From: a virus
Strand: one strand, 5' to 3'
DNA length: 64,000 nt
Virus record (IMG/VR): IMGVR_UViG_3300026290_000001
The position numbers and the translations under genes were made by a program. A model generated the notes under the pieces. That model saw nothing but the letters and a program-made list of their open reading frames with translations, made no database searches and was not told where the DNA came from. This document shows, piece after piece, positions 1,476 through 46,377 of this stretch; position 1 is the stretch's first letter; every line of letters starts with the position of its first letter.

Positions 1476-1606
1476 AAATATACAGAAAAATACAAATATA
1501 CATACTATATATAGTGGCATTAAGCAATTCATACCACAATATATAGAAAAATATTTGAATAAAATTCGGGTTTTGTCACAAAATTATTAAATAGAAAGGA
1601 GAATAT

Positions 1607-1867
1607 ATGAAAAAAATAAAATATTACTGTGACAAATGTAATAAAGAAATCCAAAAGGAAGATATTATTAAAAAAGAAATACCTACTATAGATAAAATTG
1701 AAGCAAGAGGTGGTAAGGGTAATCCTACCCCTGTATTATTAGTATTTGAAAACTTAGTTATGGATGAATATGAGTTATGCAAAAATTGTGCAGATTCATA
1801 TGAAATATTACATAATTATTTCTTAACTTTACTTGCAAAACAATGGTCTAAAGTAAATACCAAATAA
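1607..1867 (+). CDS. small zinc-ribbon protein (hypothetical)
   Basis: RBS AAAGGAG then ATG; two CxxC pairs (CDKC…CKNC). Confidence 0.5.
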   Translation: MKKIKYYCDKCNKEIQKEDIIKKEIPTIDKIEARGGKGNPTPVLLVFENLVMDEYELCKNCADSYEILHNYFLTLLAKQWSKVNTK

Positions 1868-1905
1868 TGCTTTCATAAAAACTAAAAAATAAGGAGAATA
1901 AATAT

Positions 1906-2340
1906 ATGAAAACTTTACTATTAATCTTAGGAATTATAATTCTAATTTCAAAGAAAAAGGCTATTCCAAATATTTTTAAATCTAAAGAAGTTAAGAGAAA
2001 AATGGCAGAAAAAATGTTTGATGAATTACCAGATAAGGCAAAGGAGTTACATATTGATCTTACCACATTAAAAGGCTTGTTAATTATATTTTTAGGTCTA
2101 TTTTGCTTGTTGTATATAATTTTTTATTTATTATCAGCAATATTTATTAATACCTTCGTATTCACTGTAATATCAATTCTATTAATGTTTCTTACAGTTA
2201 AAACTTTAAGTAATTTTCTAAAAGGTTTTGATAATACCGGAAATATAAAAGTAGAAAGTGTTGCATTTAGTATATTTAATATTATTGTTGATTTAGGATA
2301 CATAGGATATGTGTTTTTCAATATATATAAGATGTGGTAA
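1906..2340 (+). CDS. hypothetical membrane protein
   Basis: RBS AAGGAG; several strongly hydrophobic segments. Confidence 0.45.
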   Translation: MKTLLLILGIIILISKKKAIPNIFKSKEVKRKMAEKMFDELPDKAKELHIDLTTLKGLLIIFLGLFCLLYIIFYLLSAIFINTFVFTVISILLMFLTVKTLSNFLKGFDNTGNIKVESVAFSIFNIIVDLGYIGYVFFNIYKMW

Positions 2341-2387
2341 AACATCATAGAATAACGGTTTGGTGCAAAGTGAGGTGAAATTATTAA

Positions 2388-2552
2388 ATGACTTTTGGAT
2401 TTACTTATTTTATCTCTAAAAGGGATAAAAGCGCAGAAAGAATAATTAATATTGAAGCAGAGTCGGAAGAACAGGCATTTGATAAATACATAAAGTTTTT
2501 AAGTGAGCATCATATGGTTATGGGTGAATCACTTGGAGAAAAGTTAAAATAA
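2388..2552 (+). CDS. small hypothetical protein (54 aa), absent from the ORF track
   Basis: ATG 2388 after GTGAGGTGA RBS-like sequence; fills the gap between flanking genes. Confidence 0.3.
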   Translation: MTFGFTYFISKRDKSAERIINIEAESEEQAFDKYIKFLSEHHMVMGESLGEKLK

Positions 2553-2607
2553 AAACAACACAAAAAATCAATTTGGTTCAAACTTTTACAAAAAACACAA
2601 TATAAAA

Positions 2608-3378
2608 ATGAAAGGAGAATTAGTATATAAGTTGCAATTATACTATAAAGATGAATACATAAGATTATTTCAAGGTGATTGTTTAGAAGTAATGGATAGG
2701 TTAATTGAGAAAGGTGTTAAATTTGATGCAATAATTACTGATCCTCCTTACGGGACTACAGCTTGTAAATGGGATAGTATCATACCATTTGATAGTATGT
2801 GGGAAAGATTAAATAAGTTAATAAAGGATAATAGTGCAATAGTTTTATTTGGTAGTGAACCATTTAGTAGTCATTTAAGAGTAAGTAATATTAAAAATTT
2901 TAAATATGATTGGATATGGAATAAAAAGAAGGGAGGAAGTCCTTTACTTTCTAAAATACAACCAATAAAAATATTTGAAATTATATCTGTTTTTGGGAAA
3001 GGGAAAATAAATTATTATCCAGTAATGGTTGATAGAGATAAACCTAAATCAAGGGGTAAGAATAGAGGAACTATTAGTGATACAACAAATAATTGTTTTT
3101 CAGAAGATAAGATTTATACGCAATATTATCCTAAAGCAATTATAGAATTTTCAAATGCTAGTCAAAAAAATAAATTTCACCCAACTCAAAAACCAGTGGA
3201 GCTAATGGAATATCTTATTAACACATATACACAAGAGAATGAAATTATATTAGATTTTACTTGCGGTTCTGGTACAACATTATTAGCATCAAGAAATCTT
3301 AAAAGAAAATGTATCGGTATTGAATTGGAAGAAAAATATTGTGAAATAACTAAACAAAGATTAGAAAAAGCAAGTTAA
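2608..3378 (+). CDS. DNA methyltransferase, beta-class (DPPY)
   Basis: Motif IV AIITDPPYG, motif I DFTCGSGTT, TQKP motif; ATG 2608 overlaps the AAAGGAGAA RBS, so in-frame TTG 2632 may be the true start. Confidence 0.8.
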   Translation: MKGELVYKLQLYYKDEYIRLFQGDCLEVMDRLIEKGVKFDAIITDPPYGTTACKWDSIIPFDSMWERLNKLIKDNSAIVLFGSEPFSSHLRVSNIKNFKYDWIWNKKKGGSPLLSKIQPIKIFEIISVFGKGKINYYPVMVDRDKPKSRGKNRGTISDTTNNCFSEDKIYTQYYPKAIIEFSNASQKNKFHPTQKPVELMEYLINTYTQENEIILDFTCGSGTTLLASRNLKRKCIGIELEEKYCEITKQRLEKAS

Positions 3379-3505
3379 ATATAAAAACAGCATAAAATTC
3401 TAGTTTGGTTCAAAAATAGACGCCTAAAGATTGGGATTCTTAGAGTATGGATTTTTCAAAATAATTATTAAAATAAAAATATAAATATTGGAGGTAAATA
3501 TATAA

Positions 3506-4345
3506 TTGATAGAATTAAATAATTTTTATATAGGGGAATCTGTTAATTTTATGCGTAAAAATATTCCTGATAATTTTGTAGATTTAACAGTTACAAGTCC
3601 ACCTTATGATGATTTAAGAAAATATAATGGATTTATTTTTGATTATGAAACAATTTTTAAAGAACTTTTTAGAATAACTAAAAATGGTGGAATTGTTGTA
3701 TGGATAATAGGAGATAAGACAGAAAAAGGAACGGAAAGTCTAACAAGTTTTAAACATGCTTTAAGTGCTAAAAATATAGGATTTAATGTTCATGATACAA
3801 TGATATGGTTAAAACCTAATCCAACACCAACTGATCCTAAATGTTTAAGATATTATAATGCTTTTGAATACATGTTCGTTTTTTCTAAAGGAAAACCAAA
3901 AACATGTAATTATATAAAAGAAAAATCTAAAAATACAGGTAAAGAATTTGGTTCAGCTCCAATGAAAAGAGTAGATGGAACTAACAGAGATGACAGAACT
4001 GAAAAGTTAAAGGGTATAAAAATAAAAGACTATAAAATTAAAAGTAATGTATGGGAATGTGCTATAGGTTCAGGGGTATCTAAAGATAAAATTGCTTTTA
4101 AACATCCAGCAATTTTCCCTGAAAAATTAGTTGAAGATCACATAATTTCTTGGACTAATAAAAATGATATTGTACTAGACCCTATGTGTGGTTCGGGTAC
4201 AACGTGCAAAATGGCATGGTTAAACAAGCGTAATTTTATTGGAATTGATATGAGTGAAGAATACATAAATAACATTTGTATACCAAGATTAAATACATAT
4301 GGTTGGGAACAGAATAAAGAAAACGTATTTCAAGATTGCCTATAA
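3506..4345 (+). CDS. DNA methyltransferase, SPPY type (N4-cytosine-like or N6-adenine)
   Basis: TTG start 9 nt after GGAGG; TVTSPPYDDLRKYNG and DPMCGSGTT; paralog of 8521..9323. Confidence 0.8.
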   Translation: MIELNNFYIGESVNFMRKNIPDNFVDLTVTSPPYDDLRKYNGFIFDYETIFKELFRITKNGGIVVWIIGDKTEKGTESLTSFKHALSAKNIGFNVHDTMIWLKPNPTPTDPKCLRYYNAFEYMFVFSKGKPKTCNYIKEKSKNTGKEFGSAPMKRVDGTNRDDRTEKLKGIKIKDYKIKSNVWECAIGSGVSKDKIAFKHPAIFPEKLVEDHIISWTNKNDIVLDPMCGSGTTCKMAWLNKRNFIGIDMSEEYINNICIPRLNTYGWEQNKENVFQDCL

Positions 4346-4419
4346 ATTGGGCTTTATAATCTATAAAATCATTACCAAATTTGAGTTTGGTTCAAAGTTA
4401 TAGAAAGGAGAAATTATAA

Positions 4420-5256
4420 ATTATCAATACATATTATAAAAATAAATATGCAAGGATATATCAATGTGACAATTTAGAATTATTAAAACAATTACCAAAT
4501 GAATACATAGATTTAATTTATTGTGATATTTTATACAACACTGGTAAGAAATTTAAGGATTATGATGATCAATTAGGCACAACACAAGAAGCAATTAAAT
4601 GGTATAAACCAAGATTAATAGAAATGAAAAGAGTATTAAAGGAAACAGGATCAATTTATTTACATATGGATTTTAGATTAATACATTATTTAAAAGTAAA
4701 AATGGATGAAATATTTCAATTAAATAATTTTAGAAATGAGATTATATGGGATAAAGGATTTAGGGGTACGGAGCAAAAAGAGTTTTATCAACATTCGCAT
4801 GATTCAATATTATTTTATACAAAAACTAATAACTACATATGGAATAAAGTTTTTTGTGAATATGCTGATAAAAATATGAGTAGGTATAATAAAACTGATG
4901 AAGATGGAAATAAATATGCTTTAATTAAAAGAAAAAGAACAGACGGAAGTGTTTATTATGGCAAAACATATCCACAATCAGAAGGAAAGAAAGCAGACGA
5001 TGTATTTAGAGATATAAAAACTTTTTCATCAACAGCTAAAGAAAGAATTGGTTATGATACTCAAAAACCAAAGGCATTATTAGAACGTATTATTAAAGCA
5101 TCTTCTAATGAAGGAGATATAGTAGCAGACTTCTTTATGGGATCAGGCACTACTGGCGAAGTGGCATTAGAATTAGGTCGTAAATTTATTGGTTGTGATA
5201 TTGGGGAAAGGGCATGTGAGATTACTAAAAATAGATTAGATAAAATTATAATATAA
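4420..5256 (+). CDS. DNA methyltransferase homolog with degenerate motif IV (DILY); start uncertain (ATT 4420) or pseudogene
   Basis: Track ORF 4624..5256 has TQKP and DFFMGSGTT; upstream in-frame sequence ([31 protein letters not shown]) is clearly MTase N-terminus; no ATG/GTG/TTG between TAA 4417-4419 and 4624; ATT 4420 lies 9 nt after AAAGGAG. Confidence 0.55.
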
Positions 5257-5308
5257 AAACATGACAAAAACTATGTTTTATTTAGATTTTAAAAGAAAGG
5301 AGAAACAT

Positions 5309-5614
5309 ATGAAATTTATTAAAGATATTTCTAATATTATAATATTGCAAAATGATCATTGTAAATTTGAAATCAGAAGTGTACAAGGATTTAATGAAGA
5401 TGAAAATAAAATAATCTTAAAATGTGCCGAAGATATATCAGAGTTTAAAAAAGGTTATGTTTGTGATATGGAATGTCATTTTCCATTAGTTGAAAATGAT
5501 GGAGTTGAAGTTGGTGAAAGAATTGATACGATTCGAGACTTGGTATTGGTTTATATCAATAAAGATATTCAAATGGAATATGCCCCTAGTTTTGAATATG
5601 TATTTTATAAATAA
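5309..5614 (+). CDS. hypothetical protein
   Basis: Track ORF 5261..5614; ATG 5309 preceded by AAAGGAGAA is the likelier start. Confidence 0.5.
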   Translation: MKFIKDISNIIILQNDHCKFEIRSVQGFNEDENKIILKCAEDISEFKKGYVCDMECHFPLVENDGVEVGERIDTIRDLVLVYINKDIQMEYAPSFEYVFYK

Positions 5615-5659
5615 TAAAACAAAATTTCGATTTTATAACGATTTTAAAAGGAGGATATT

Positions 5660-5890
5660 ATGTTTAAAAAAATTAAAGTTAGAGAATTTTTAGAAGAAGT
5701 TTGCGGAGCAAAAGTTGATTGGATTTCTGGTAATGTAATTAAAGTAAATGAACATTATATTTATTTAGATAAAAAGAAATTTATTTTAAATTATGATTGG
5801 CATTTTTATGGAACAAAAAGAGATATATTAAAAACACTAAAAGAATATGGGTTTGTGATTAAAAAGAAATTACAGTTAAATTATTATTAG
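5660..5890 (+). CDS. hypothetical protein
   Basis: RBS AAAGGAGG then ATG. Confidence 0.5.
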   Translation: MFKKIKVREFLEEVCGAKVDWISGNVIKVNEHYIYLDKKKFILNYDWHFYGTKRDILKTLKEYGFVIKKKLQLNYY

Positions 5891-5906
5891 AAACGAAAGG
5901 AGAAAT

Positions 5907-6047
5907 ATGCATACTGAACTAACAGAGGATCAACTTAAACTAATAAAAAAGTATGGGGAAATTAATCCACCACATCATACTATTGAAGAAATTGAAGAAG
6001 CATTGAAAAAATCATCTGAAATTAAAATAAAATTACAAGAAAAATAA
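5907..6047 (+). CDS. small hypothetical protein (46 aa), absent from the ORF track
   Basis: AAAGGAGAAAT then ATG 5907, stop TAA 6045-6047. Confidence 0.3.
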   Translation: MHTELTEDQLKLIKKYGEINPPHHTIEEIEEALKKSSEIKIKLQEK

Positions 6048-6165
6048 ATATCGTGATAAAATCTCTATTTGGTGCAGAAATGGATGGCTATATATTGGGA
6101 TTTGTGGGGCTATAAATTTTGAAAATAAAAACAAAAAATAAAGATAGGAGGTAAATATATAAAAT

Positions 6166-7158
6166 TTGCTTGAATTGAATAAAATATATAATGAAGATTG
6201 TATAATCGGCATGAAAAAATTATTAAAAGATGGTTACAAAAATACTTTTGATTTTATAGAAATTGATCCACCTTATAATATAGGCAAAGATAAATGGGAT
6301 AAATTTAAAAACCATCAAACATATTTAAATTTTATTAATGAAGTTATAAGTTTATCTAATGAATTAATGAGCGATAATGGAACCTTATTTTTATGGCATA
6401 ATAATATCGAGGTGTTATCAGATTTTATTAAATTAATTAATACTACAGATTTAAAATTAATGCAATTATGTATATGGAATAAATATTATAAATATAATGA
6501 TGACGGTAATTTGAATAATCAATACGGATTTTTAAATGGATTTATTCAAAGTGATTTAAATAGGAATTATCAAAAAATGTGCGAATATATTTTATATTAC
6601 ACTAAACAAAACGAAGAATTAACTGAATATAATGAAAAAGACCCATTTAAATCACTAAAGGAATATTTTTTTAATGCCCAAAAATCTTCTGGTTTATCAA
6701 GAAATAAAATTAATCAAATATTGGGGCATAGACAATCTGAGCATACTTTTTATACTAAAACTCAATGGACTTTTCCAACAGAAGAAACATATTTAGAATT
6801 ACAAAATATAATGAATCTACCTATCCCTTATAATGATTTAAAAAATACATATGAAACAATGAGATATACATATAATTCAGAGAAAAACAATTATCGAAGT
6901 TGTATTTGGAATTACCCGATAAGTAAAGAATCAAAACACAAGACAGAGAAACCGTTACAATTGTATTATGATTTATATGAAATACATACAAAAAATAATA
7001 GTAAATGTTTATTCCCGTTTGTGGGTAGTGGTAATAATATTTTAAGTTTATTTAAAATAAATAATTTTGATGGAGGGAAACGAGAGTTTGTAGGTTTTGA
7101 AACTGACAAAACATGGTTTACTTATATAAATGAAAAAATAGATTTAAGAATCCCGTAA
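6166..7158 (+). CDS. DNA methyltransferase, beta-class (DPPY)
   Basis: TTG start after AGGAGG; FIEIDPPYNIGKDKWD and FPFVGSGNN. Confidence 0.8.
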   Translation: MLELNKIYNEDCIIGMKKLLKDGYKNTFDFIEIDPPYNIGKDKWDKFKNHQTYLNFINEVISLSNELMSDNGTLFLWHNNIEVLSDFIKLINTTDLKLMQLCIWNKYYKYNDDGNLNNQYGFLNGFIQSDLNRNYQKMCEYILYYTKQNEELTEYNEKDPFKSLKEYFFNAQKSSGLSRNKINQILGHRQSEHTFYTKTQWTFPTEETYLELQNIMNLPIPYNDLKNTYETMRYTYNSEKNNYRSCIWNYPISKESKHKTEKPLQLYYDLYEIHTKNNSKCLFPFVGSGNNILSLFKINNFDGGKREFVGFETDKTWFTYINEKIDLRIP

Positions 7159-7211
7159 TATTGGGATTCTTAAACCCAAAAATCAACACCAAACTTCGGT
7201 TTGGTTCAAAG
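7149..7211 (+). promoter_or_regulatory. copy of the repeated intergenic module (GC-stem hairpin, AAAATCA…AAAC box, TTTGGTTCAAA box)
   Basis: ATCCCGTAATATTGGGAT hairpin overlapping the upstream stop, then AAAAATCAACACCAAAC, then TTTGGTTCAAA ~10 nt before the RBS. Confidence 0.35.
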
Positions 7212-7232
7212 TTATAGGAAGGAGAAAATAAT

Positions 7233-7427
7233 ATGTTTGATTGTAGATTCGCTAAAAGTATTCTATTGGATAAAAATGAAGATGATACTTATCATATGAC
7301 AATAAAAGGAGATATTTATAATCTTGATCCTGAAGCGGAAATTGATTTTTCTAGAGTGAAAATTATTAATTTTGATATTGAGGCATTAGCAACAACTGGG
7401 ACAATATGTAAAATAAAAATAATATAA
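7233..7427 (+). CDS. hypothetical protein
   Basis: GGAAGGAGAA RBS then ATG. Confidence 0.4.
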   Translation: MFDCRFAKSILLDKNEDDTYHMTIKGDIYNLDPEAEIDFSRVKIINFDIEALATTGTICKIKII

Positions 7428-7521
7428 AATTTTTGTTTGGTTAAGAAATTTATAATTATTATAGGGATTGATTTTACCATAATTTTAATATATAATAAAA
7501 ATAAAAACGGAGGTTTTATAT

Positions 7522-7692
7522 ATGGCGATTAAATTAGAATGTGATAAAATCATTCCAAAGTGTAGTGATTGTAAATATAATAAGGATTATTCTTCTTGGC
7601 AACATAAAATTCCTTGTGGAAAACAATTCTGTGTATATGGTTGTAATGTATGTAAAAATCCATGTGATGCAAAGGAGAATATGTCTTGGTAA
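7522..7692 (+). CDS. small cysteine-rich protein (56 aa, 10 Cys), absent from the ORF track
   Basis: RBS ACGGAGG then ATG 7522; stop 7690-7692. Confidence 0.35.
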   Translation: MAIKLECDKIIPKCSDCKYNKDYSSWQHKIPCGKQFCVYGCNVCKNPCDAKENMSW

Positions 7693-7720
7693 AAATTAAT
7701 ATTAATAAAGGAGTTATAGT

Positions 7721-8461
7721 TTGTATAAATCGCCTCTTAGATATCCAGGAGGTAAAAGCAGGGCGATAAAAATAATTATCGAGTATTTTCCGAAAAGTAT
7801 AAAAGTTATGAGTTCTCATTTTGTAGGAGGAGGATCAATTGAACTTTATTTATCTGAAAATAATAAAATAATTGCGTATGATAATTTCGATCTGCTTATT
7901 AACTTTTGGAATCAATTAAAATATAAAAATAAAAATTTACATAATACAATATTAAAATATTACCCGTTAACAAAAGAACAATTTTTAGATATACAAAAAA
8001 ATATTTATAATTCAGATGATGAAGTTGAAATGGCCGCTAAATTTTATGTTTTAAATAGATGTAGTTTTTCAGGTAGTACATTAAGCGGTGGAATGTCACT
8101 AAATCATCCAAGATTTAATATTAATTTAATACATAAACTTCAGGAAGTAAATTTAAAAAATATTGAGTTTATTTGTATGGATTTCAAAGAATCAATATTA
8201 TTACATCAAAATAATTTTAAGTATTTAGACCCACCCTATTATATTGAAAATAATTTATATGGAGTAAAAGGAGGGTTACATAAAAATTTCGATCATATTG
8301 GTTTGAATGGTATTTTAAAACAATCATCTAATTGGGTATTAAGTTACAATGATTGTGAATACATAAGAAAACTTTATGAAGGATGCAAAATAATACAAGT
8401 TGATTGGAAATACGGAATGAGTAAAGATAAAAAATCTAATGAAATTCTTATAATAAATTAG
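7721..8461 (+). CDS. Dam-like N6-adenine DNA methyltransferase (D12 class)
   Basis: TTG start after AAAGGAG; N-terminal LRYPGGKSR and later FKYLDPPYY, the Dam-family motif order. Confidence 0.8.
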   Translation: MYKSPLRYPGGKSRAIKIIIEYFPKSIKVMSSHFVGGGSIELYLSENNKIIAYDNFDLLINFWNQLKYKNKNLHNTILKYYPLTKEQFLDIQKNIYNSDDEVEMAAKFYVLNRCSFSGSTLSGGMSLNHPRFNINLIHKLQEVNLKNIEFICMDFKESILLHQNNFKYLDPPYYIENNLYGVKGGLHKNFDHIGLNGILKQSSNWVLSYNDCEYIRKLYEGCKIIQVDWKYGMSKDKKSNEILIIN

Positions 8462-8520
8462 TAATATAAAAACAATATAAATATTTGGTTTGGTCATGAA
8501 ATATGAAAGGAGATTATATT

Positions 8521-9323: not shown

Positions 9324-9428
9324 AATAAAAATCCCAATTTCTAGGGATTTACAAAACTCAAAAACATGATCAAAACTTCGTTTTGTTACATCAATAAAAC
9401 AATAAAATAAATTAAGGAGGGAAATAAA

Positions 9429-9884: not shown

Positions 9885-9910
9885 TAAAAATATCAAGCAA
9901 ACAATGATAT

Positions 9911-9955
9911 ATAGGCATTTTCAACTTATCACAAATGCCTATATATTGGGCTTTT
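9911..9955 (+). terminator. perfect 10-bp stem hairpin followed by a short T-run, candidate intrinsic terminator
   Basis: ATAGGCATTT (9911-9920), 12-nt loop, AAATGCCTAT (9933-9942), then ATATTGGGCTTTTAC. Confidence 0.35.
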
Positions 9956-10014
9956 ACAAAAATCATTACCAAAATATCATTTTATATTAATTAGAAAGGA
10001 GAAACAAAATATAA

Positions 10015-11438: not shown

Positions 11439-11665
11439 AAAATAAAAATCATGATAAAATAAGTGTTTTATCATAATATTGCAGAAATCAGTATTTTGGT
11501 AGGTTATCAACAAATACACACAACAAAGCCCTAAATGGTGGGAATGAAAAGGTATTTTAAGTGGATTAACTCTACCAAAGTAAAAAATATTTGAACCAAA
11601 TGCGTCTTTTATTCAAAGTTTATTAAAAACATAAAATAAATATAAAGAAAAGAGGATTATATATA

Positions 11666-12370: not shown

Positions 12371-12434
12371 ATATTTACTTTCTTTATAGTATGGTGTATA
12401 ATAAATATATCATATCTATATAGGAGGTTAAATT

Positions 12435-12644
12435 ATGAAAACATATAAAACTGAATCAGGAGAAGAATGGTTATATTTTGATGAATGGTTAGTAGAAAAC
12501 AGTTATTATAAATGGAAAAAACAATATGATATTTTAGCAAGTACGGGGACAGATGAAGAAGAAATAGATAGGATTAAAGACGATTTATTAAAACAATTCT
12601 ATGATTTTTGTGAAGAATATGGGTATGTTGGTCAGGAAGTATAA
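12435..12644 (+). CDS. hypothetical protein
   Basis: RBS TAGGAGG then ATG. Confidence 0.45.
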   Translation: MKTYKTESGEEWLYFDEWLVENSYYKWKKQYDILASTGTDEEEIDRIKDDLLKQFYDFCEEYGYVGQEV

Positions 12645-12668
12645 TTTATAATTTTTGTGTTTTACGAA

Positions 12669-12728
12669 CCCCTAAATAATGGGGTTTGTGAAACCAAAAA
12701 TCATGATAAAACTCATCTTTTGTGTTGA
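12669..12728 (+). promoter_or_regulatory. copy of the repeated intergenic module
   Basis: CCCCTAAATAATGGGG hairpin, AAAAATCATGATAAAAC, TTTTGTGTTGA. Confidence 0.35.
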
Positions 12729-12764
12729 TATTAAAATTTAAATATAAGGAGGTAATATTATTAA

Positions 12765-13517
12765 TTGTTTGAATTAAATAAAATATATTGTGTTGATTGT
12801 TTAGAAGGGATTAAAAATATAGAAAGTGGCAGTATTGATATGGTATTTTTTGATCCTCCTTTCAATTTAAACAAAGATTATGGAATTAAAATTAATGATA
12901 ATTTAATAAAAGAAAAATATTTAAACTGGCAGTATGAAATATTAAAAGAATCTATTAGAGTGCTATGTGATAATGGGGCAATAATTTATCATACTATCCC
13001 AAAATGGGCATTTAAAATAGCTAATTATCTTGATGAACAAGGAATGGTTTTTCAAAATTGGATTTGTTGGAATGAATCAGGATCAACACCTACCCCTTCA
13101 AGATTATATCCTAAACATTATCCTATTCTTTGGTTTTCTAAGAATAAACTCAAAACTTTTAATAAACAATATATTCCCATAGAAAGATGCAGAAAGTGCA
13201 ATACTACTATAAAAGATTATGGTGGCAAATTTAAAGATTTAAAAGAAATAGATGGTGAAAAAGTAACTGTTTTAAGTGATGTATGGGACGATATACATAG
13301 AATAAGACATAATAAAAATAAAAATAGAAAATCAAATGAACTTCCCGAAATTTTAATGGAAAGAATAATTAACTTATATTCTAAAGAAAATGATATAATT
13401 TTAGACCCATTTTCAGGTAGTGGGACAACATGTAAAATAGCAAAGAAACTAAATAGACAATATATTGGATTTGAAATTAATCCTGAATACATAAAAATCT
13501 CAAAAGAACGTATTTAA
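12765..13517 (+). CDS. DNA methyltransferase, beta-class (DPPF)
   Basis: TTG start after AAGGAGG; VFFDPPFNLNKDYG and DPFSGSGTT. Confidence 0.8.
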   Translation: MFELNKIYCVDCLEGIKNIESGSIDMVFFDPPFNLNKDYGIKINDNLIKEKYLNWQYEILKESIRVLCDNGAIIYHTIPKWAFKIANYLDEQGMVFQNWICWNESGSTPTPSRLYPKHYPILWFSKNKLKTFNKQYIPIERCRKCNTTIKDYGGKFKDLKEIDGEKVTVLSDVWDDIHRIRHNKNKNRKSNELPEILMERIINLYSKENDIILDPFSGSGTTCKIAKKLNRQYIGFEINPEYIKISKERI

Positions 13518-13598
13518 AACAACAAAATAATATTATTGACGTTGTTGACTTTGTTTGTGAAAATTGATATAATTAATAAAAATGTAGGAGGTATATTT

Positions 13599-13859
13599 AT
13601 GGCAGTACGCAGACAAAGGGCAACAACTAGTGCAGAAATAATGGATAAAGATATTAAAATAGTAATTAAAAAATCAAAAGTTCGCTATAGAAGTGTAGAA
13701 TCAAAATCTCATGGTTTTGTTAATGAATTTTGGATTGAAAAAATTGATGATTTATTTTTTTCAGGAGGTAAAATAAGTGAAGAAAGAATTTATCAACATT
13801 GGAAATTCAACTTTGATAAAAATAAGTGGGAGTGTATAGAAGACAAATCTAAAAATTAA
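13599..13859 (+). CDS. hypothetical protein
   Basis: Track ORF 13536..13859; ATG 13599 after TAGGAGG is the likelier start. Confidence 0.45.
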   Translation: MAVRRQRATTSAEIMDKDIKIVIKKSKVRYRSVESKSHGFVNEFWIEKIDDLFFSGGKISEERIYQHWKFNFDKNKWECIEDKSKN

Positions 13860-13878
13860 TTTAATAAGAAAAATACAA

Positions 13879-13940
13879 ATCCCATTATATCGGACTTCAT
13901 TTTTATAAAAATCATGATAAAACTTGTCTTTTGTCATGAT
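13879..13940 (+). promoter_or_regulatory. copy of the repeated intergenic module
   Basis: ATCCCATTATATCGGA, AAAAATCATGATAAAAC, TTTTGTCATGA. Confidence 0.35.
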
Positions 13941-13972
13941 ATTAAAACAAAAATAAATATGGAGGTTAAAAT

Positions 13973-15394
13973 ATAATTAAATTAAATAAGTTTGCATTAG
14001 TACAATTAACTCCAAAAGATATGCGAAGCCAAGATAGTATAAATTTAGGATTAGAAATTATATCTGAAATAGTTAAAAAACAAGGTTGGCAATTAGATAC
14101 ATATAAATTCGGAGATAAAATTCAAGATGTTAATTCATATGATATTATAGGGTTTAGTTTATTCTATTTTACACAAATGTTAAATTTAGTTCCATTCCTA
14201 AAGAGTAATAATATTAAACCATTAAGTAGTAAAAGAAACAATCAACCACTATTATTAGCTGGCGGTCAAGGTATTCAAAATCCTAAACCAATTAGTAAAT
14301 TTATTGATGTATTTTGTATGGGTGAGGGTGAGGGGGTTTTGGAATATATCTTAGAAAATTATAAAAATAAAAATATTTTATCAAACCATAAGTCTTTGTA
14401 TATACCAAATATAAATGATAATTTTATATTCAACTCAATAAAAGATGTTGATTCTAAACCTATAATTTATGGTAAAAATAGCATGATAGAATTAACGAGG
14501 GGATGTAAAAATAGATGTAAGTTTTGTCAGTATGGATGGACAAATGGTAAATATCGAGAAAAAAACATCGAACTAGTAAAACAACAAATATTAGAGGTTA
14601 AAGATAAAGGCATTAAAAATATTAACTTGTTAAGTTGTAATTTGGGTGGTTATTCTAAGATAAATGAAGTTCTTGATTTTTGTATAGAAGAAAATATTAG
14701 ATTAATGAATACCGATATGAGAATTGACGAATATAGTGAAGAAATAGCTATAAAATTAGACCTACTAAAAGTGAGAACTCTAAAAGTTGGAGTAGAAAGC
14801 TTTTCTGATCAAACACGAATTGGTATTAATAAGAATATTTCAAAAATACAATTAGATACTTTTATTGACAGAGCTTTGAAGCATAATATATCAAATTTAC
14901 ATTTTTATTTAATATACGGACTTCCAAACGAAGAAAACTATAATGAATGGTTTAATTATATGGAATACATAAAAAATAGAATAAAATCTGTTGATAGAAA
15001 TATAAGAATTGAATTTAGTATTACTAATTTTGAACCAGCAATATATACACCCTTTGAAAAAAGTCCTTTAATTAATTTCCAAGACAAGCATAAATTTATG
15101 AGAGAATATTTAATAAAACAAGAAGAATTGGGTTATATAAAACAACCCGCACAAACAAAAGATTATAAAAATAGTCATGGAAGATTAGGCAGAAAAGAAC
15201 GAAGTTATAATATTGGAATGTGGTTACTACATGGGGACGAAACTGTAGGGGATGTGTTATATGAATTAAACATTAAAGGAATAGGTAGGAGTATAAATGA
15301 AAAGATTTATAATCAAATTTATAAAATATGCCAATCAAAAACTGATGTTTATCAAATAAGAAACATTCAAGATTTAAATGAAAATATATGGTGA
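13973..15394 (+). CDS. B12-binding-domain radical SAM protein; probable ATA start
   Basis: CX3CX2C radical SAM motif (GCKNRCKFCQ); upstream GEGEG-containing B12-binding-like segment; frame opens at 13970; ATA 13973 is 7 nt after GGAGG; track ATG 14021 has no RBS. Confidence 0.7.
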   Translation: MIKLNKFALVQLTPKDMRSQDSINLGLEIISEIVKKQGWQLDTYKFGDKIQDVNSYDIIGFSLFYFTQMLNLVPFLKSNNIKPLSSKRNNQPLLLAGGQGIQNPKPISKFIDVFCMGEGEGVLEYILENYKNKNILSNHKSLYIPNINDNFIFNSIKDVDSKPIIYGKNSMIELTRGCKNRCKFCQYGWTNGKYREKNIELVKQQILEVKDKGIKNINLLSCNLGGYSKINEVLDFCIEENIRLMNTDMRIDEYSEEIAIKLDLLKVRTLKVGVESFSDQTRIGINKNISKIQLDTFIDRALKHNISNLHFYLIYGLPNEENYNEWFNYMEYIKNRIKSVDRNIRIEFSITNFEPAIYTPFEKSPLINFQDKHKFMREYLIKQEELGYIKQPAQTKDYKNSHGRLGRKERSYNIGMWLLHGDETVGDVLYELNIKGIGRSINEKIYNQIYKICQSKTDVYQIRNIQDLNENIW

Positions 15395-15402
15395 TGTCCA
15401 TG

Positions 15403-15460
15403 CCTATAAATTGGGATTCTCAACACTCAAAAACATGATAAAACTAGTTTTTGGTCATGA
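15403..15460 (+). promoter_or_regulatory. copy of the repeated intergenic module
   Basis: CCTATAAATTGGGATTC, AAAAACATGATAAAAC, TTTTGGTCATGA. Confidence 0.35.
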
Positions 15461-15470
15461 AATTAAATGC

Positions 15471-15499
15471 TTGACAAATATTAATTAAAATAGTAATAT
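15471..15499 (+). promoter_or_regulatory. sigma-70/sigmaA-type promoter upstream of the ligase gene
   Basis: TTGACA (15471-15476), 17-nt spacer, TAATAT (15494-15499); RBS GGGAGGAAGG; ATG 15526. Confidence 0.5.
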
Positions 15500-15525
15500 A
15501 AAGATACTGCGAAGGGAGGAAGGTT

Positions 15526-17397
15526 ATGAGTGAAATAGAAAATCTCAAACAACAATTAGATTACCATGATGATTTGTATTACAATCAAGACGATCCTGAA
15601 TTATCTGATGTGGAATATGATGCTTTAAAACAAGAATATCTTAATTCAGTTAATCAACAAGAATACAACTATATACCTGGGCAAGCACAATTTAAAAAAT
15701 TCACACACACATTCCCTATTAAATCATTGGGGAAAATAAATACTATTGAACAAGCAAGAAAAGAAATTGAAAGGTTATATCCAGTAGTTATTGAACCTAA
15801 ATATGATGGATTAACCTTAGTGTTATATGGTGAAGGGAAAGTAGTAACTAGAGGTAGTGGTCAAATCGGAGAAGATGTTACTGCAAATGCTTCTAGATTT
15901 ATGCGTACTTATAATCCATATGGTTTACCTATTCGTGGCGAAGCAATTATGCCTATATCAGTGTTCCATGAAATTAACAAACAAAGGGATGTAGAAGGTA
16001 AGGAATTATTTAAAAATCCAAGAAATGCAATAGCAGGTATTCTTAGAAATAAAGATAATAGTAATATCCCTAAAGGGTTAAGATTTATTGCTTATGAAAT
16101 CGTAGGATCAGCAGAATCCCATATTCAACAATTATTAGAACTTAAAAAATACTATGATATACCTGAAGCAGATACTATTTGGAATTATAGTGAAATTGAT
16201 GATGCAGTAAAATTCATAGAAAACTTTGATCGTTCTAAATTAGATTATGAAATTGATGGATTAGTTATTAAATCTAATAAGACAAATGCATTAGATATTT
16301 TTGGTGAAACTGAACATCATCCGAACCATAGTGTTGCCTACAAGTTTCCTTCTCAGGGAGAATGGACTGTATTAAAATCTATAACTTGGCAAACTGGTCG
16401 CACGGGCAGAATTACCCCTGTGGCAGAATTGGAACCAGTAGATATTATGGGAAGTACAATCGAACGTGCTACATTGCATAATATAGGGTATATTAGTGGT
16501 TTAGATTTACAGCTATATGATAAGGTGTTTTTAGTGAAAAGTAATGATATTATTCCCGCTGTGATTAAATGTGAGCATACTAAAAATAGTAAACCTATTG
16601 AAATTATAAACAAGTGTCCTTCATGTGGAAGTGAATTAAAAATTATCAATGATCAATTATTCTGTATTAATGATGATTGTTTGGCAAAATTATTATATAG
16701 AACTTCTCATATGGTTAGTCGAGATGCCCTTAATATAGATGGTCTTAGTGAGCAAACCATTTTAAAAATGATTGAAGCAGGATATATTAATAAACCTTGG
16801 GATATATTTGATGTTACTGAAACAGAAATATTAAAATTAGATGGTTTTGCAAAGAAATCTGCCAAAAAAATATATGAAAATATTCAAAATGCAAGAAATT
16901 GTGATTTTGATAGAGCAATTTACGCTTGTGGAATTGAACTGATAGGCAGAAAGGTTAGTAAAGATATTGCAAAAGAATTTGAGACTATTGATAATTTGTT
17001 ATATTGTTTAAGACGTGATGATGCTAGAAGTATATTAGGTATGATTGATGGTATTGGTAATACCACTATAGATAGTTTATTGAATAACGTTAATATTTTA
17101 GAAAATATGGTGGATTATTTAAGTATTAGTAGTGTTGAAAAGAAAGAAACAACTTTTAAATCTCTTGAAAATATTACATTTGTAGTTACCGGAAATGTAG
17201 AAACATTTAAAAACCGTAAAGAGTTAGAAGAATTGATCACTTCTCTTGGTGGTAAGTTAAGTGGATCAGTTTCAAGTAAAACTAATTATTTAATCAACAA
17301 CGATATTACCTCCAATTCTGGTAAGAATAAAAAGGCAAACGAATTAGGGGTAGAAATTATTAGTGAAATACGATTTAATGAAATGATAGGTAGGTAA
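15526..17397 (+). CDS. ligA: NAD-dependent DNA ligase (LigA type)
   Basis: Adenylation motif KYDG (EPKYDGLTL); Cys4 zinc finger (CPSCGSEL…C…C); C-terminal BRCT-like region; 623 aa. Confidence 0.85.
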   Translation: MSEIENLKQQLDYHDDLYYNQDDPELSDVEYDALKQEYLNSVNQQEYNYIPGQAQFKKFTHTFPIKSLGKINTIEQARKEIERLYPVVIEPKYDGLTLVLYGEGKVVTRGSGQIGEDVTANASRFMRTYNPYGLPIRGEAIMPISVFHEINKQRDVEGKELFKNPRNAIAGILRNKDNSNIPKGLRFIAYEIVGSAESHIQQLLELKKYYDIPEADTIWNYSEIDDAVKFIENFDRSKLDYEIDGLVIKSNKTNALDIFGETEHHPNHSVAYKFPSQGEWTVLKSITWQTGRTGRITPVAELEPVDIMGSTIERATLHNIGYISGLDLQLYDKVFLVKSNDIIPAVIKCEHTKNSKPIEIINKCPSCGSELKIINDQLFCINDDCLAKLLYRTSHMVSRDALNIDGLSEQTILKMIEAGYINKPWDIFDVTETEILKLDGFAKKSAKKIYENIQNARNCDFDRAIYACGIELIGRKVSKDIAKEFETIDNLLYCLRRDDARSILGMIDGIGNTTIDSLLNNVNILENMVDYLSISSVEKKETTFKSLENITFVVTGNVETFKNRKELEELITSLGGKLSGSVSSKTNYLINNDITSNSGKNKKANELGVEIISEIRFNEMIGR

Positions 17398-17400
17398 AAT

Positions 17401-17640
17401 ATGAACGATAAAATCTATATTATACCTAGAGAAGATAAACCAATAAAATTCATTATTGAAGAATTACCATGTCCTATCTGTTCACAAATTGGATATGATT
17501 TTAGATGTGAACATGCCAAAAGTAGTTTTAAAGATTTAATATATACAATATCTTGTACTAATTTTAATCATTGTGAAAATGCAGAGAATATATCATTGAA
17601 ATTCAATGAGTTAATACAAGATGAGTTGTTAACCACTTGA
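17401..17640 (+). CDS. hypothetical Cys-rich protein
   Basis: ATG immediately after the ligase stop; CPICSQ…CEH…C. Confidence 0.45.
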   Translation: MNDKIYIIPREDKPIKFIIEELPCPICSQIGYDFRCEHAKSSFKDLIYTISCTNFNHCENAENISLKFNELIQDELLTT

Positions 17641-17950
17641 CAGATTAGTAAAATAAATATATAATAAAATTACAACAAAATATCAAAAATATCAATTTTA
17701 CAAATCCCAATATATAGCCATTCTTGAAGGTGAAAATCAACACCAAATCTGCGTTTTGTCACAACTTTTATGAATGCTAATATACAGGGCTTGAGAATTG
17801 CTATTTTAAGCGAAAATACGGTAAAATCAATGGTTTTAAGTAATTACTAAAATTAGCTTTACATAAAGTCCAATATATAGGCGTTTATAATTCTAAAAAT
17901 CGTGACAAAAGTGTCATTTTGTTTAGAAATTATAGAAAGGGGAATTAAAT

Positions 17951-18136
17951 ATGGATAAAAATTTTTTATTGCTTTGTTCATATGAGAATATGGAAGGAAT
18001 GCTAGAAAGAGATTTTGAATGGTATCAAACAGAAGAAAACATGAGAGAAAGCATTGAAGATAAAAAAGAATTTATAAAAGATTTTACGGTCAATAAAGCA
18101 ATAGAAATATTACAAGTTAGAAATATAGAAATATAA
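17951..18136 (+). CDS. hypothetical protein
   Basis: RBS AAAGGGGAA then ATG. Confidence 0.4.
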   Translation: MDKNFLLLCSYENMEGMLERDFEWYQTEENMRESIEDKKEFIKDFTVNKAIEILQVRNIEI

Positions 18137-18192
18137 TTTAAATAATAAACCTTAGTAATAAAAACATTAAAAGGAGATGAATTATACATAAT

Positions 18193-18951
18193 TTGATTGA
18201 ATTGAATAAAATTTATAATGAAGATTGTATAGGTGGAAGGGGTATGTGTTTAATCCCAAATGAATCAATCGATATGATTTTATGTGATCTTCCGTATGGA
18301 ACTACGATGGCGAAATGGGATAAGATTATCAACCAAGAAGAATTGTGGACGCAGTATAGAAGGATAATTAAACCCAGAGGGGCAATTGTACTAACTTCTA
18401 GTCAGCCATTTTCAAGTGCTTTAATATATAAAAACCTAGACATTTATAGGCATTCATGGGTTTGGGAAAAGAACAATTCTGCAGATTATGCCAATGCAAA
18501 TTGTAGACCAATGAAAATACATGAGGAAGTATTGGTATTTTCATTCGCACATGATGTTGCTCCTGCTAAAGTAAAGATGATTTATAATCCACAGGGGCTA
18601 ATACCAGTTAATAAGCCCAATCGGAGAGGTAGACATAGTGAAACAACAGGTCATTTTAGAGAGAATGAGTACATACAAAAATACACAAACTATCCTACTA
18701 CAATATTGAGGTTTGCTTCAGATAAAGATAAAATTCACTCTACACAAAAACCTGTGGCGTTGTTTGAATATCTTATAGAAACATATAGTAATGAAGGTGA
18801 TTTGGTTTTAGATAATTGTATAGGCTCAGGCACAACAGCGATTGCGTGTATAAACATCAAACGTAAATTTATAGGGTTTGAAAATGACAATACATATTTT
18901 GAGTTAGCAAACAAAAGAATAGAAGAACATAAATGTAAAATAAATATTTGA
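18193..18951 (+). CDS. DNA methyltransferase, beta-class, motif IV variant DLPY
   Basis: TTG start after AAAGGAGA; MILCDLPYGTT; TQKP; DNCIGSGTT. Confidence 0.75.
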   Translation: MIELNKIYNEDCIGGRGMCLIPNESIDMILCDLPYGTTMAKWDKIINQEELWTQYRRIIKPRGAIVLTSSQPFSSALIYKNLDIYRHSWVWEKNNSADYANANCRPMKIHEEVLVFSFAHDVAPAKVKMIYNPQGLIPVNKPNRRGRHSETTGHFRENEYIQKYTNYPTTILRFASDKDKIHSTQKPVALFEYLIETYSNEGDLVLDNCIGSGTTAIACINIKRKFIGFENDNTYFELANKRIEEHKCKINI

Positions 18952-19212
18952 CATTTAACCACAAACAGTATATAATAAAATTACCAGCAATATGCATCAA
19001 AAATATTAAAAATTTGCTTTTTACAAATTCCATTATATAGGTATTTATCAATACCCACAAAGCCCGATATATTGGGATTTTTACAAAAACATTACCAAAA
19101 ACAAATTTGGTCATGATTTTAAATTTGTCTTATATAAATTCAATATATAAGAATTTATTTTAAAATAAATTGCTGAGTTGAAATACGAAAGAAAGGAGGA
19201 AATACATAAAGT

Positions 19213-46361: not shown

Positions 46362-46377
46362 AAAATCATTTTTAAGA

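Follow-up and report, generated by a model that had tools for sequence, protein, structure and literature searches.

The closest known analogue of the repeat described here is SPBRE, a repeated element of Bacillus phage SPbeta whose binder is the master repressor MrpR (YopR), a recombinase-fold protein. SPbeta carries about ten copies, placed directly ahead of the Shine–Dalgarno sequence (yopV, yopM and yonX) or, at aimR, just upstream of a −35. The promoter-early stem-loop (PeSL) of T4-type phages is a composite repeat of about 60–100 bp with a stem-loop on either side of a conserved box; the box has the sigma-70 promoter consensus and the stem-loop terminates effectively. PeSLs are concentrated in a plastic region, ahead of genes that are accessory or orphan, and repeat-bounded cassettes there distinguish close relatives. 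The dif modules of Acinetobacter plasmids have accessory genes between their sites, and the pdif sites that bound the modules alternate in orientation. Phage P1 has one repressor, C1, with operators dispersed ahead of many early genes as asymmetric 17-mers, and restriction–modification controller proteins act at C-boxes, pseudo-symmetric operators of about 35 bp through which methyltransferase and nuclease expression is timed. Stoperators of cluster A mycobacteriophages, sites of L5 gp71-type repressors, are 13–14 bp long and occur in many copies in transcribed intergenic regions. They are described as short, asymmetric, read by a monomer and orientation-dependent, with the bound repressor blocking elongation as well as initiation (PMC9283540).

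We compared these systems with a repeat family in an uncultivated phage of about 135 kb, for which a 64-kb stretch (IMGVR_UViG_3300026290_000001, the window) and the 11.4-kb flank upstream of it were scanned. The family has a 28-bp dyad, named P2, and a neighbouring hairpin, named P1. Like SPBRE, P2 is a short dyad-like repeat, intergenic and linked to early lytic genes, in a siphovirus of about 135 kb with SPbeta-type tail proteins (matching the SPbeta-named families YomG, YomF, YomN and XepA), and its placement is likewise ahead of Shine–Dalgarno sequences or a −35. However, the SPBRE sequence that we derived from SPbeta (AAATACAAAWAATATGTATATA) is unrelated to P2 and had 1 match in the window compared with 0.77 expected, no P2 site was found in the 50 kb of SPbeta that were scanned, and P2 is both longer (11-6-11) and more numerous (at least 27 copies). 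The module shares with PeSL its composite build, its accessory gene setting and its variable cassettes, but P2 is no sigmaA promoter and P1 is in most copies a poor terminator; the host group (Firmicutes-type) and phage lineage also differ. P2 resembles stoperators in its many transcribed intergenic copies and in its proposed action, a block of elongation and initiation, whereas it is a 28-bp symmetric dyad. From general knowledge, the array can also be likened to the C1 operators and to C-boxes; no C-protein-like helix-turn-helix gene was found among the proteins searched here (window and upstream flank).

Anatomy and positions of the P2 dyad

The sequence-only reading had described a tripartite module, a hairpin followed by two boxes, ahead of most early genes. 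All 16 of its copies were present, and the family was independently recovered by a repeat finder that aligned module copies in register over 41–90 nt (repeat families D2, D4, D5, D7, D10, D12, D13 and D17). The repetition therefore stood, while the anatomy had to be redrawn: a single dyad has "box A" as one arm and "box B" as the other, and the hairpin is optional. P2 is an imperfect inverted repeat of two 11-bp arms (TCATGAYMAAA-N6-TTTKRTCATGA) with A- and T-rich flanks and a spacer fixed at 6 bp that has no conserved sequence, placing the arm centres 16–17 bp apart. Simple helix-turn-helix dimers do not usually have such spacing, a point that counts against an operator.

When the window was searched with a symmetric weight matrix trained only on 30 sites of other phage contigs (threshold at least 10 bits), 22 sites were found compared with 0.2 in Markov shuffles; all 22 were intergenic and 20 lay within 1–19.2 kb. 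As read off the gene map and site list, P2 was present in 18 of 21 intergenic gaps that measure at least 40 nt in 1–19.5 kb. Single short degenerate patterns were weakly above chance (14 versus 7.0 and 11 versus 5.1); the signal comes from the two arms taken together and from where they are placed. P2 also occurred in many low-GC phage contigs that are otherwise unrelated, and a further contig with the dyad was binned with a Tissierella genome. Every confirmed site in the low-GC phage contigs had the 6-bp spacer, and hits with 5- or 7-bp spacers were confined to unrelated, GC-richer contigs. In the other phages the arm nearer the gene and the arm farther from it were equal in composition, as expected of homodimer binding. 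Within the window, the coding strand gave the higher score for 22 of 24 copies, and conservation was somewhat stronger in the right arm than in the left, which hints at a directional role and speaks against an operator.

P2 preceded nearly all accessory early genes, among them at least 12 orphan DNA methyltransferase (MTase) genes, either 5–40 nt ahead of the ribosome-binding site or beside separate sigmaA promoters. The copies that follow are on the plus strand unless marked. The first (TTTGAATAAAA-ttcggg-TTTTGTCACAA, 1554–1581) lies 25 nt ahead of the start of gene 1607. MTase genes follow the copies at 2555–2582 (gene 2608/2632), 3387–3414 (gene 3506; P1 downstream, 3418–3440), 4369–4396 (gene 4420, ATT start; P1 4334–4356), 6051–6078 (gene 6166; P1-like motif downstream, 6082–6104), 8472–8499 (gene 8520), 9364–9391 (Dam-type gene 9429, ATA start; P1 9326–9352), 9963–9990 (weak right arm; MT-A70 gene 10015; long P1 hairpin 9907–9950), 10593–10620 (degenerate; gene 10668) and 12701–12728 (gene 12765; 13-bp P1 hairpin 12660–12694). 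Other genes are preceded by copies at 2342–2369 (weaker; gene 2388), 5259–5286 (gene 5309), 5614–5641 (degenerate; gene 5660), 7183–7210 (gene 7233; strong 13-bp P1 hairpin 7143–7175) and 17900–17927 (gene 17951; P1 motif 17864–17888). The best copy (TCATGATAAAA-cttgtc-TTTTGTCATGA, 13912–13939, 38.4 bits) precedes the radical SAM gene 13973 and has a weak P1 at 13876–13900. The copy at 11449–11476, located 3′ of MTase gene 10668 and 189 nt from gene 11666, faces one at 11590–11617 that scores better on the minus strand and has no minus-strand gene after it. The copies starting at 2342, 5259, 5614, 7419, 10593, 11449, 11590 (minus) and 17737, and the weak ones at 34563 and 36373, add to those of the earlier reading, and the upstream flank holds at least five more.

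P2, promoters and the phage sigma factor

Several copies lie close to sigmaA promoters. Those at 7419–7446 (weak left arm; promoter, sigmaA-like, 7468–7496; gene 7522) and 15433–15460 are upstream of one, the latter ending 10 nt before the −35 of the promoter at 15471–15499 (NAD ligase gene 15526); a site of L007 (5676–5708) is also just ahead of a −35. Others are within leaders, at 17737–17764 (about 70 nt past the promoter at 17637–17665; P1 motif 17701–17725) and at 19089–19116 (past the promoter at 18948–18976; gene 19213), and also in L004 and L049. The two gaps with a strong sigmaA promoter and no other element (12371–12434 and 13518–13598) were free of P2, as if P2 and promoter were alternatives, and this counts against an operator.

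The latter pattern would also fit P2 being, or overlapping, a phage-specific promoter read by host RNA polymerase with the phage sigma factor or a phage activator. The hairpin and P2 would then form a terminator–promoter cassette giving each accessory gene a separate middle-phase transcript, the logic of the PeSL cassettes. Indeed, P2 sits between hairpin and ribosome-binding site in most genes without a sigmaA promoter, and the window copies are mostly co-oriented with the genes. The gene at 34620–35219, which had been proposed to encode such a factor, was confirmed as sigma-70-family (SigF/G/K-like); it has its own sigmaA-like promoter (34305–34333) and a weak P2-like site directly ahead of it (TTTAAACCAAA-ggtaaa-TTTCGTTCAAA, 34563–34590), a second weak site at 36373–36400 preceding gene 36423. 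However, the dyad is symmetric, with arms equivalent relative to the gene in other phages, and its conserved blocks are 16–17 bp apart, whereas those of sigma-70-family promoters are about 23 bp apart centre to centre. The right arm lies 0–8 nt from the Shine–Dalgarno sequence in several copies (0 nt in L057; 5 nt at 8499), several copies lie inside leaders of strong sigmaA promoters, and the copy at 43826–43853 has no gene downstream on its own strand. P2 was missing from the late tail genes read here, on which a phage sigma factor usually acts. The sequence-only reading was correct that the module differs from the promoter at 15471–15499, and a promoter with box A as −35 and box B as −10 is disfavoured by spacing, symmetry and Shine–Dalgarno proximity; P2 is probably no −35/−10 pair, and we regard a promoter role as unlikely.

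Arm variation, the P1 hairpin and cassette turnover

We also considered whether the module acts in RNA, the arms pairing to form a processing site, 5′ stabiliser or translational operator in polycistronic early transcripts, comparable to RNase III sites in T7 or SP82. Many copies do lie in transcribed leaders near the ribosome-binding site, the best ones fold into 12-bp hairpins (z −2.9 to −5.6 with strong P1 included), and at one arm position there are T-G combinations that could pair, as U-G, in the sense strand only. Nevertheless, the arms of the window copies paired on average at 7.9 of 12 positions within a copy and at 8.0 of 12 between copies (permutation p 0.69). Across the 58 unique sites of all phages there was no covariation (p 0.31) and no compensatory change, and the central arm pair was mispaired (A-G or C-T) in 33 of the 58, as for independent arms. 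Several copies folded no better than shuffles (17695, z +0.75; 15392, z −0.76), and no Rfam family was found at the module. Arms that match one consensus without covarying rule against a selected RNA hairpin, and an action in RNA seems very remote. The lack of covariation, the fixed spacer and the distance between arm centres instead make P2 a predicted protein-binding dyad on duplex DNA.

The P1 motif (CCCAATATATAGGG, at most 3 mismatches) had 26 matches in comparison with 7.2 expected, a number reached in none of 100 shuffles. Its consensus is asymmetric and was found in both orientations, and it accompanied about 16 of 24 P2 copies, 12 upstream and 4 downstream of the dyad, so the module is not strictly tripartite. 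P1 copies were often degenerate, and the hairpins beside P2 in other phage contigs had different sequences. The suggestion that the hairpin is a terminator fared poorly, since simple criteria identified only 2–3 copies as terminators and terminator-like sites numbered 8 versus 4.3 expected.

Comparison of relatives revealed how cassettes differ. L014, which has 92% nucleotide identity to the window, carries an extra 406 bp with a P2, a ribosome-binding site and a gene, bounded by P1 on both sides, and at that point the window has one hybrid P1, the first of two adjoining P1 motifs (19024–19048 and 19058–19083). The other shared breakpoint lies at window 19188/19189, near the ribosome-binding site. 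Module pieces were 92–100% identical to L049 and L040, where the ligases are only 31–38% identical in amino acids. P1/P2 units thus look like marks of places of cassette gain and loss. In the orthologous pair of window 17701–17764 and L049, hairpin and spacer were better conserved than the arms, which does not favour an operator.

Another reading is that a phage Xer-type tyrosine recombinase uses P2, and possibly P1, as a dif-like target and that the genes between are mobile cassettes, comparable to Acinetobacter dif modules or integron cassettes. P2 shares with dif and pdif the 28-bp 11-6-11 format, palindromic conserved inner arm halves, and variable outer halves and centre, and close relatives differ in cassette content. 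Furthermore, a XerA/XerC/XerD-like recombinase gene with intact catalytic motifs (46457–47461, minus) ends about 20 bp from the P2 at 46411–46438 (minus; perfect P1 palindrome 46376–46400), which precedes a putative lysis gene block, its function guessed from position and the reading of sequences. An integrase 3′ fragment lies upstream of the P2 at 43826–43853, situated with a P1 (43790–43815) between convergent gene blocks. Tyrosine recombinases normally require matching centres, yet the 6-bp centres differed in nearly every copy. The well-resolved indel broke in P1 and the other breakpoint near a ribosome-binding site, so the observed breakpoints do not support recombination at P2. P2 copies are co-oriented or symmetric rather than alternating like pdif, and no inversions were seen between oppositely oriented P1 copies. 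The recombinase scored 95.9 bits against the 265-bit integron-integrase cutoff, and no such gene was found beside P2 sites in other contigs. We consider dif-like sites quite unlikely.

The degeneracy of many copies, of P1 especially, would suit a decaying selfish or recombinogenic repeat that has no regulatory role and is carried along with duplicated MTase cassettes. Module subfamilies exist (D12, 76% identity over 88 nt; D13, 70% over 90 nt) and some neighbouring MTase genes are paralogues (D1 and D3). By contrast, the inner arm hexamers and 6-bp spacing were maintained in 58 sites from divergent phages, coding sequence was without sites, and distances to gene starts were narrow. Moreover, the relatives L004, L014 and L018 all keep the site at 19089–19116 in the corresponding position, so that it is found in four related phages in all, while the surroundings diverged. 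Such a functionless repeat is highly unlikely.

P2 as a candidate operator array

Of the promoter, operator and terminator/antiterminator readings offered earlier, the operator is the best supported, the promoter being disfavoured and the terminator weak, and the P2 array is most likely an operator array. We give about an even chance to the joint reading that the module is at once an operator array, a two-part cis-regulatory cassette and a set of homology patches for cassettes. The dyad anatomy, the independence of the arms, the placement, the conservation among phages and one cassette indel at P1 were observed, whereas binding by a protein, repression and the identity of that protein are inferred. 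No helix-turn-helix repressor was found among about 65 proteins of the window and upstream flank (Pfam, PHROGs and NCBIfam; by estimate 45–50 kb of the genome lies outside those read), nor any MrpR homologue by BLASTP among the proteins searched, and these searches gave no candidate binder, which weighs against an operator. The phage does encode recombinase-family proteins, and MrpR has a recombinase fold; the Xer-like recombinase is a candidate P2 binder.

In the operator reading, P2 would be the duplex-DNA binding site of one dimeric phage regulator, repeated at least 27 times among accessory early genes that span about 30 kb. From a position just ahead of each ribosome-binding site or beside the few sigmaA promoters, the regulator would block initiation or read-through, and P1 may weakly insulate one cassette from the next or act as a weak attenuator between them. 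Being repeated, the units would double as homology patches for cassette gain and loss. The whole accessory block, with its orphan MTase genes, would thus be switched on or off together, as by MrpR on SPBRE.

Repeated dyad and its accompanying hairpin

A symmetric weight matrix trained solely on 30 sites from other phage contigs was applied to the window at a threshold of at least 10 bits, and 22 sites of the 28-bp dyad P2 were found, compared with 0.2 in Markov shuffles. All 22 were intergenic, 20 of them within 1-19.2 kb. By our own comparison of the site list with the gene map, the first 19.5 kb contain 21 intergenic gaps that measure at least 40 nt, and 18 of these carry a P2 site. A repeat finder blind to the claim revealed that the intergenic regions form families in register over 41-90 nt. 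The independently trained matrix and the repeat finder decided against chance or mere AT-richness, the case that the sequence-only reading had named as fatal to its proposal of a repeated module, and every module copy listed in that reading was present. We consider a non-functional repeat highly improbable.

The earlier description of the module was good overall, except that its two boxes proved to be the arms of one dyad. Gapless alignment on box B demonstrated that boxes A and B form a single inverted repeat, TCATGAYMAAA-N6-TTTKRTCATGA, flanked by A-rich and T-rich sequence. Most of the information resided in the inner hexamers (AYMAAA and TTTKGT), while the outer half-arms were variable (TCATGA, TTCAAA, CAACAC, CATTAC) and the six central bases were essentially unconstrained. 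The spacer was always 6 bp in low-GC phage contigs; matches from the metagenome scan with a 5- or 7-bp spacer fell in GC-richer contigs carrying no other site. In other phages the gene-proximal and gene-distal arms had the same composition.

If a hairpin were under selection, pairing between the arms of one copy should exceed pairing between arms of different copies. In the window, 7.9 of 12 positions paired within a copy versus 8.0 between copies (P = 0.69), and the same test on 58 unique sites from all phages, with G-U pairs allowed, gave P = 0.31. The mid-stem pair (12/25) was paired in 25 of the 58 sites and was A-G or C-T in the other 33, which is the frequency expected for independent arms, and mixed arm pairs such as ATAAAA opposite ACCAAA recurred across unrelated phages. 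Two covariation tests thus spoke against an RNA or DNA hairpin for P2. Rfam searches detected no known RNA family within the modules, and an RNA element appears a very remote explanation of the module. The lack of arm covariation, together with the fixed 6-bp spacer and the equivalent arms, suggests that P2 behaves as a sequence-specific, two-fold symmetric duplex-DNA site, and hence as a putative protein-binding site.

P1, the small hairpin motif that accompanies many P2 copies, had the consensus AATCCCAATATATAGGC and was enriched (26 matches versus 7.2 expected). It lay upstream of P2 in 12 copies and downstream in 4, was missing in about 7, and its asymmetric consensus was found in both orientations. 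PeSL, the promoter-early stem-loop cassette of T4-type phages, has a stable stem-loop beside its conserved box, in a variable position; here the P1 hairpins were strong at 7143, 9907 and 12660, where the stems reached 13-15 bp, and weak or absent elsewhere, with scarcely any folding at 15398 and 17701. Many copies were simply AAATCCC-loop-GGGATTT with only three G-C pairs. When an intrinsic terminator was defined as a T-run preceded by a stem of 5 bp or more that includes three or more G-C pairs, only the P1 copies at 4338 and 19063 qualified on the coding strand, and the region contained 8 terminator-like sites versus 4.3 expected (s.d. 2.5). The stems beside P2 varied by phage (CCC/GGG, GCC/GGC, CCCTT/AAGGG, GTAACA/TGTTAC), and this difference in stem sequence points to a possible structural role for P1.

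Gene layout, promoters and the sigma factor

The phage genome has a GC content of 27%, and the window is one part of it. Two IMG/VR contigs were nearly identical to the window, and one of its proteins is also encoded on two contigs assembled independently, each 135.3 kb long and taken here to be the whole phage genome. Genes lie on the plus strand up to about 43.7 kb, with the accessory early genes followed by replication genes (DnaE, RecD2-type helicase, RecJ and primase), a sigma factor, NrdD and nucleotide-metabolism genes. Past 43.8 kb the minus strand carries a presumed lysis block, the gene for a Xer-like recombinase and the tail genes. Among isolates, Clostridium phage Amboise had the closest DnaE (48% amino-acid identity), and the tail proteins matched Pfam families named for SPbeta proteins (YomG, YomF, YomN and XepA). 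A free-standing LAGLIDADG-type homing endonuclease gene was observed between the RecJ and DnaE genes (26893-27732, plus strand). Amid the tail genes, a HEARO RNA (Rfam RF02033, 121.7 bits) lay directly upstream of a gene for a 430-aa RRXRR/HNH protein (54449-56029, minus strand), the two making up an IscB-type omega-RNA (OMEGA) element. The ORF at 62031-63989 is only the C-terminal part of a 2014-aa tape-measure gene. Past the window end, the tail module also contains, close to the tape-measure gene, a second recombinase-family gene (345 aa; contig L087, 2438-3475) with catalytic motifs apparently intact.

The first 19 kb encode 12 DNA methyltransferases (MTases), a PAPS-reductase-like protein, a radical SAM protein, an NAD-dependent ligase and many small orphan genes. 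The MTase genes (237-18951) belong to several families (N6_N4, D12, Dam and MT-A70), and in almost all of them a strong Shine-Dalgarno sequence is followed by TTG, ATT or ATA as the start codon, a use of weak starts that looks systematic. By our reading a similar gene array extends at least 6 kb upstream of the window and appears to include at least four further MTase genes (contig L007, which includes the upstream flank, 7203-10897). To our knowledge the MTase array is among the largest orphan-MTase runs in one phage.

In about 12 copies the right arm of P2 ended 5-40 nt upstream of the Shine-Dalgarno sequence, and with P1 in between it lay 65-100 nt ahead of the start codon; in one other contig (L057) it directly abutted the Shine-Dalgarno sequence. 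Strong sigmaA-type promoters were few in the region (12374, 13545, 15471, 17637 and 18948), and P2 kept no fixed register to them: two have it 70-260 nt further downstream, in the leader, a third has it 10 nt ahead of its -35 element, and in the upstream flank P2 lies against the -35 element of another promoter. The order promoter, leader, P1, P2 and gene was kept at the orthologue of gene 19213 in contig L004, and for a different gene in L049. The copy at 43826 lay between convergent gene blocks without a downstream gene on its own strand, and that at 46411 (minus strand) lay ahead of the putative lysis gene block. No copy was found among the tail genes.

Gene 34620 was correctly called a sigma factor in the sequence-only reading: its product scored above the TIGR02937 cutoff for sigma-70-family factors and was SigF/G/K-like, and the gene had a sigmaA-like promoter of its own. 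The bona fide sigmaA promoters of the region were likewise separate from the module, in line with the difference noted earlier from the promoter at 15471-15499. A phage-specific promoter read by this sigma factor is the main rival to an operator array, and a cascade in which the factor reads P2 is conceivable; we nevertheless regard it as unlikely, since P2 is symmetric and missing from late genes, its arm centres are just 16-17 bp apart and the leader would often be only a few nucleotides long. A sigma-70 promoter is asymmetric, with element centres about 23 bp apart (16-18 bp spacer) and a start 6-9 nt past the -10 element; P2, with box A taken as -35 and box B as -10, departs from this in arm spacing and dyad symmetry, and neither arm matches TTGACA or TATAAT. 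If P2 were a sigmaA promoter, or box B a -35 or extended -10 element, the start would fall inside or after the Shine-Dalgarno sequence. A Mor/C-type activator site, expected at -43, was rejected because of the lack of fixed register: relative to three promoters, by our own reading, the P2 positions are about -56, -59 and -80.

Several further elements were observed in these intergenic regions. A second repeat, ATTAAAATAGTAATATAAA, occurs in four copies (15481-15499, 40698-40716 and 43351-43369 in the window; 5723-5741 in L007) and looks like a distinct sigmaA-type promoter class, because TTGACA precedes two of the four at 17 nt. Two P2 copies point towards each other at 11449-11617. The roughly 110 nt of non-coding DNA separating them contain a further inverted repeat (TTGGTAGGTTA / TAACTCTACCAA) and, at 11529, a P1-like motif, and could represent a small RNA gene or the scar of a cassette. 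Just upstream of the module where the gene blocks converge is a perfect match to the DnaA box, TTATCCACA (43771-43779); a single box may be due to chance. Between the module and the first putative lysis gene (46234-46330), a strong hairpin (AAGGCAGGAT...ATCCTGCCTT) is followed by a plus-strand T-run, and a 7-bp stem, TTGCGGT/ACCGCAA, ends at the Shine-Dalgarno sequence.

Cassette turnover and distribution among phages

When close relatives were compared, the replication genes were 92-95% identical and the accessory region differed. Contig L014 contains an extra stretch of 406 bp, consisting of P2, a ribosome-binding site and a gene, between two P1 copies, and at this position the window has one hybrid P1 (19029-19046). 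The whole interval from the ligase gene to gene 19213 was replaced in L015 and missing in L016 and L004. Pieces of the module were 92-100% identical to L049 and L040, and the ligases of those contigs were just 31-38% identical to that of the window, indicating much stronger conservation, or more recent exchange, of the regulatory pieces than of the genes. The PeSL cassettes show the same pattern of turnover (PMC2839356, PMC4122927). Indels bounded by repeats between close relatives are common to both systems, here with one clear case, L014. In contrast, the PeSL box is a consensus host sigma-70 promoter within the repeat (PMC2839356, PMC4122927), whereas P2 matches neither -35 nor -10 and the sigmaA promoters lie elsewhere. 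In the upstream flank (L007, 8108-10076), an MTase gene ends after 14 codons, where a foreign segment of visibly higher GC content interrupts it. Two further MTase-like genes lie on this segment, the second of them a hybrid with a 3' end that matches 4136-4323 and 9101-9330 of the window, which may be a sign of recent recombination within the array.

Pattern scans revealed the P2 dyad in many low-GC phage-like contigs, including one binned with a Tissierella genome in which P2 lies between two hairpins. This contig gave the one plausible match among nine obtained when a strict pattern was run over 596 Gb of prokaryotic genomes, the rest being scattered chance matches, so a widespread host regulon is unlikely. 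P2 was absent from the 50 kb scanned of Clostridium phage Amboise, from a relative whose radical SAM protein is 73% identical and from more distant relatives. Three metagenome contigs with a GC content of 0.38-0.42 (L052, L070 and L074) have clusters of the repeat TTTCATGA / TCATGACAAA around a P2-like palindrome; these clusters resemble iterons from an unrelated plasmid or phage.

Comparison with phage operators and recombination sites

Phage SPbeta was examined because the structural genes of the phage are SPbeta-like. Its repeated operator, the SPbeta repeated element (SPBRE), recurs at the promoters of about ten early genes and was shown by ChAP-seq and EMSA to be bound by MrpR (YopR), the master repressor, which has a catalytically dead tyrosine-recombinase fold (PMC10516654). 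From seven SPbeta promoter regions we derived SPBRE as AAATACAAAWAATATGTATATA, an imperfect dyad located directly before the Shine-Dalgarno sequence (yopV, yopM and yonX) or just upstream of the -35 element (aimR). P2 takes the same two placements, and both elements are repeated in the promoter or leader regions of early lytic genes, while their sequences are unrelated. The window held one SPBRE match with 3 mismatches versus 0.77 expected, so SPBRE is not present, and no P2 was found in 50 kb of SPbeta scanned. By this analogy, P2 would work like SPBRE but outside the SPBRE/MrpR system. SPBRE, stoperators and PeSL were the known kinds closest to the P1/P2 module. Stoperators, however, are short and asymmetric with an orientation tied to transcription, and the 28-bp dyad symmetry of P2 and the equivalence of its arms relative to the gene in other phages argue against this class. 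None of the host regulator boxes considered (Fur, CodY, LexA, Rex, CtsR, ComK, sigma-54 and DnaA) fitted P2, and a literature search on the arm sequence returned nothing relevant.

No candidate binder emerged among about 65 proteins searched against Pfam, PHROGs and NCBIfam, or from co-occurrence of window proteins with P2-bearing contigs; it may be encoded in the remaining 45-50 kb of the genome. In the roughly two thirds of the genome covered, BLASTP related neither of the two recombinase-like proteins to YopR; YopR-type proteins diverge fast. One P2 copy lies about 20 bp from the gene for a XerA/XerC/XerD-like recombinase whose catalytic motifs are intact, and the 3' fragment of a tyrosine integrase gene (43402-43735, plus strand; 111 codons with HxxR and Tyr motifs and no start) adjoins another copy, lying between a promoter-like repeat and the P1/P2 module. 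The dif and pdif sites are 28 bp long, with two 11-bp arms, whose inner halves are conserved and palindromic and outer halves variable, around a variable 6-bp centre (PMC6449649), and P2 has the same 11-6-11 anatomy. Because P2 is dif-like and the Xer-like gene and the integrase fragment adjoin copies, the P2 binder could be a recombinase or recombinase derivative, which raises the possibility of site-specific cassette exchange at P2. In such exchange, breakpoints would fall in matching 6-bp centres. The centres differ in nearly all P2 copies, and the resolved breakpoints lie in P1 or near the ribosome-binding site rather than in P2, and we therefore judge dif-like recombination sites to be very unlikely. 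An integron was rejected, since it requires an IntI-type integrase and attC sites of 57-141 bp with R''/L''-L'/R' structure, whereas the TIGR02249 score was 95.9 bits against a cutoff of 265 and P2 is 28 bp with arms just 6 bp apart. No tRNA genes were found, which excluded a tRNA or an attP within one.

The best-supported reading, which we hold with moderate confidence, is that P2 forms a putative operator array at which one dimeric phage regulator would act, that P1 provides weak hairpins beside these operators, and that the P1/P2 units would double as recombination-prone cassette boundaries. A more far-reaching proposal, quite improbable in our estimate, makes P2 the dif-like sites of a phage Xer-family recombinase or of an SPbeta-like, recombinase-derived repressor and the MTase genes between them a phage-borne cassette system, so that one protein family would silence the array and occasionally shuffle the anti-restriction repertoire among phages of anaerobic Firmicutes. 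The dif-like architecture beside a Xer-type recombinase is the most intriguing lead, and it makes a link between recombinase and repressor directly testable. If P2 is an operator array, one regulator would control about 30 kb of accessory early genes, and the logic known from SPbeta, in which many repeats answer to a single repressor, would extend to uncultivated phages of anaerobic Firmicutes. P2 would then be a simple sequence tag by which co-regulated anti-defence genes could be recognized in metagenomes, and the cassette differences at the repeats show the reshuffling of such arsenals.
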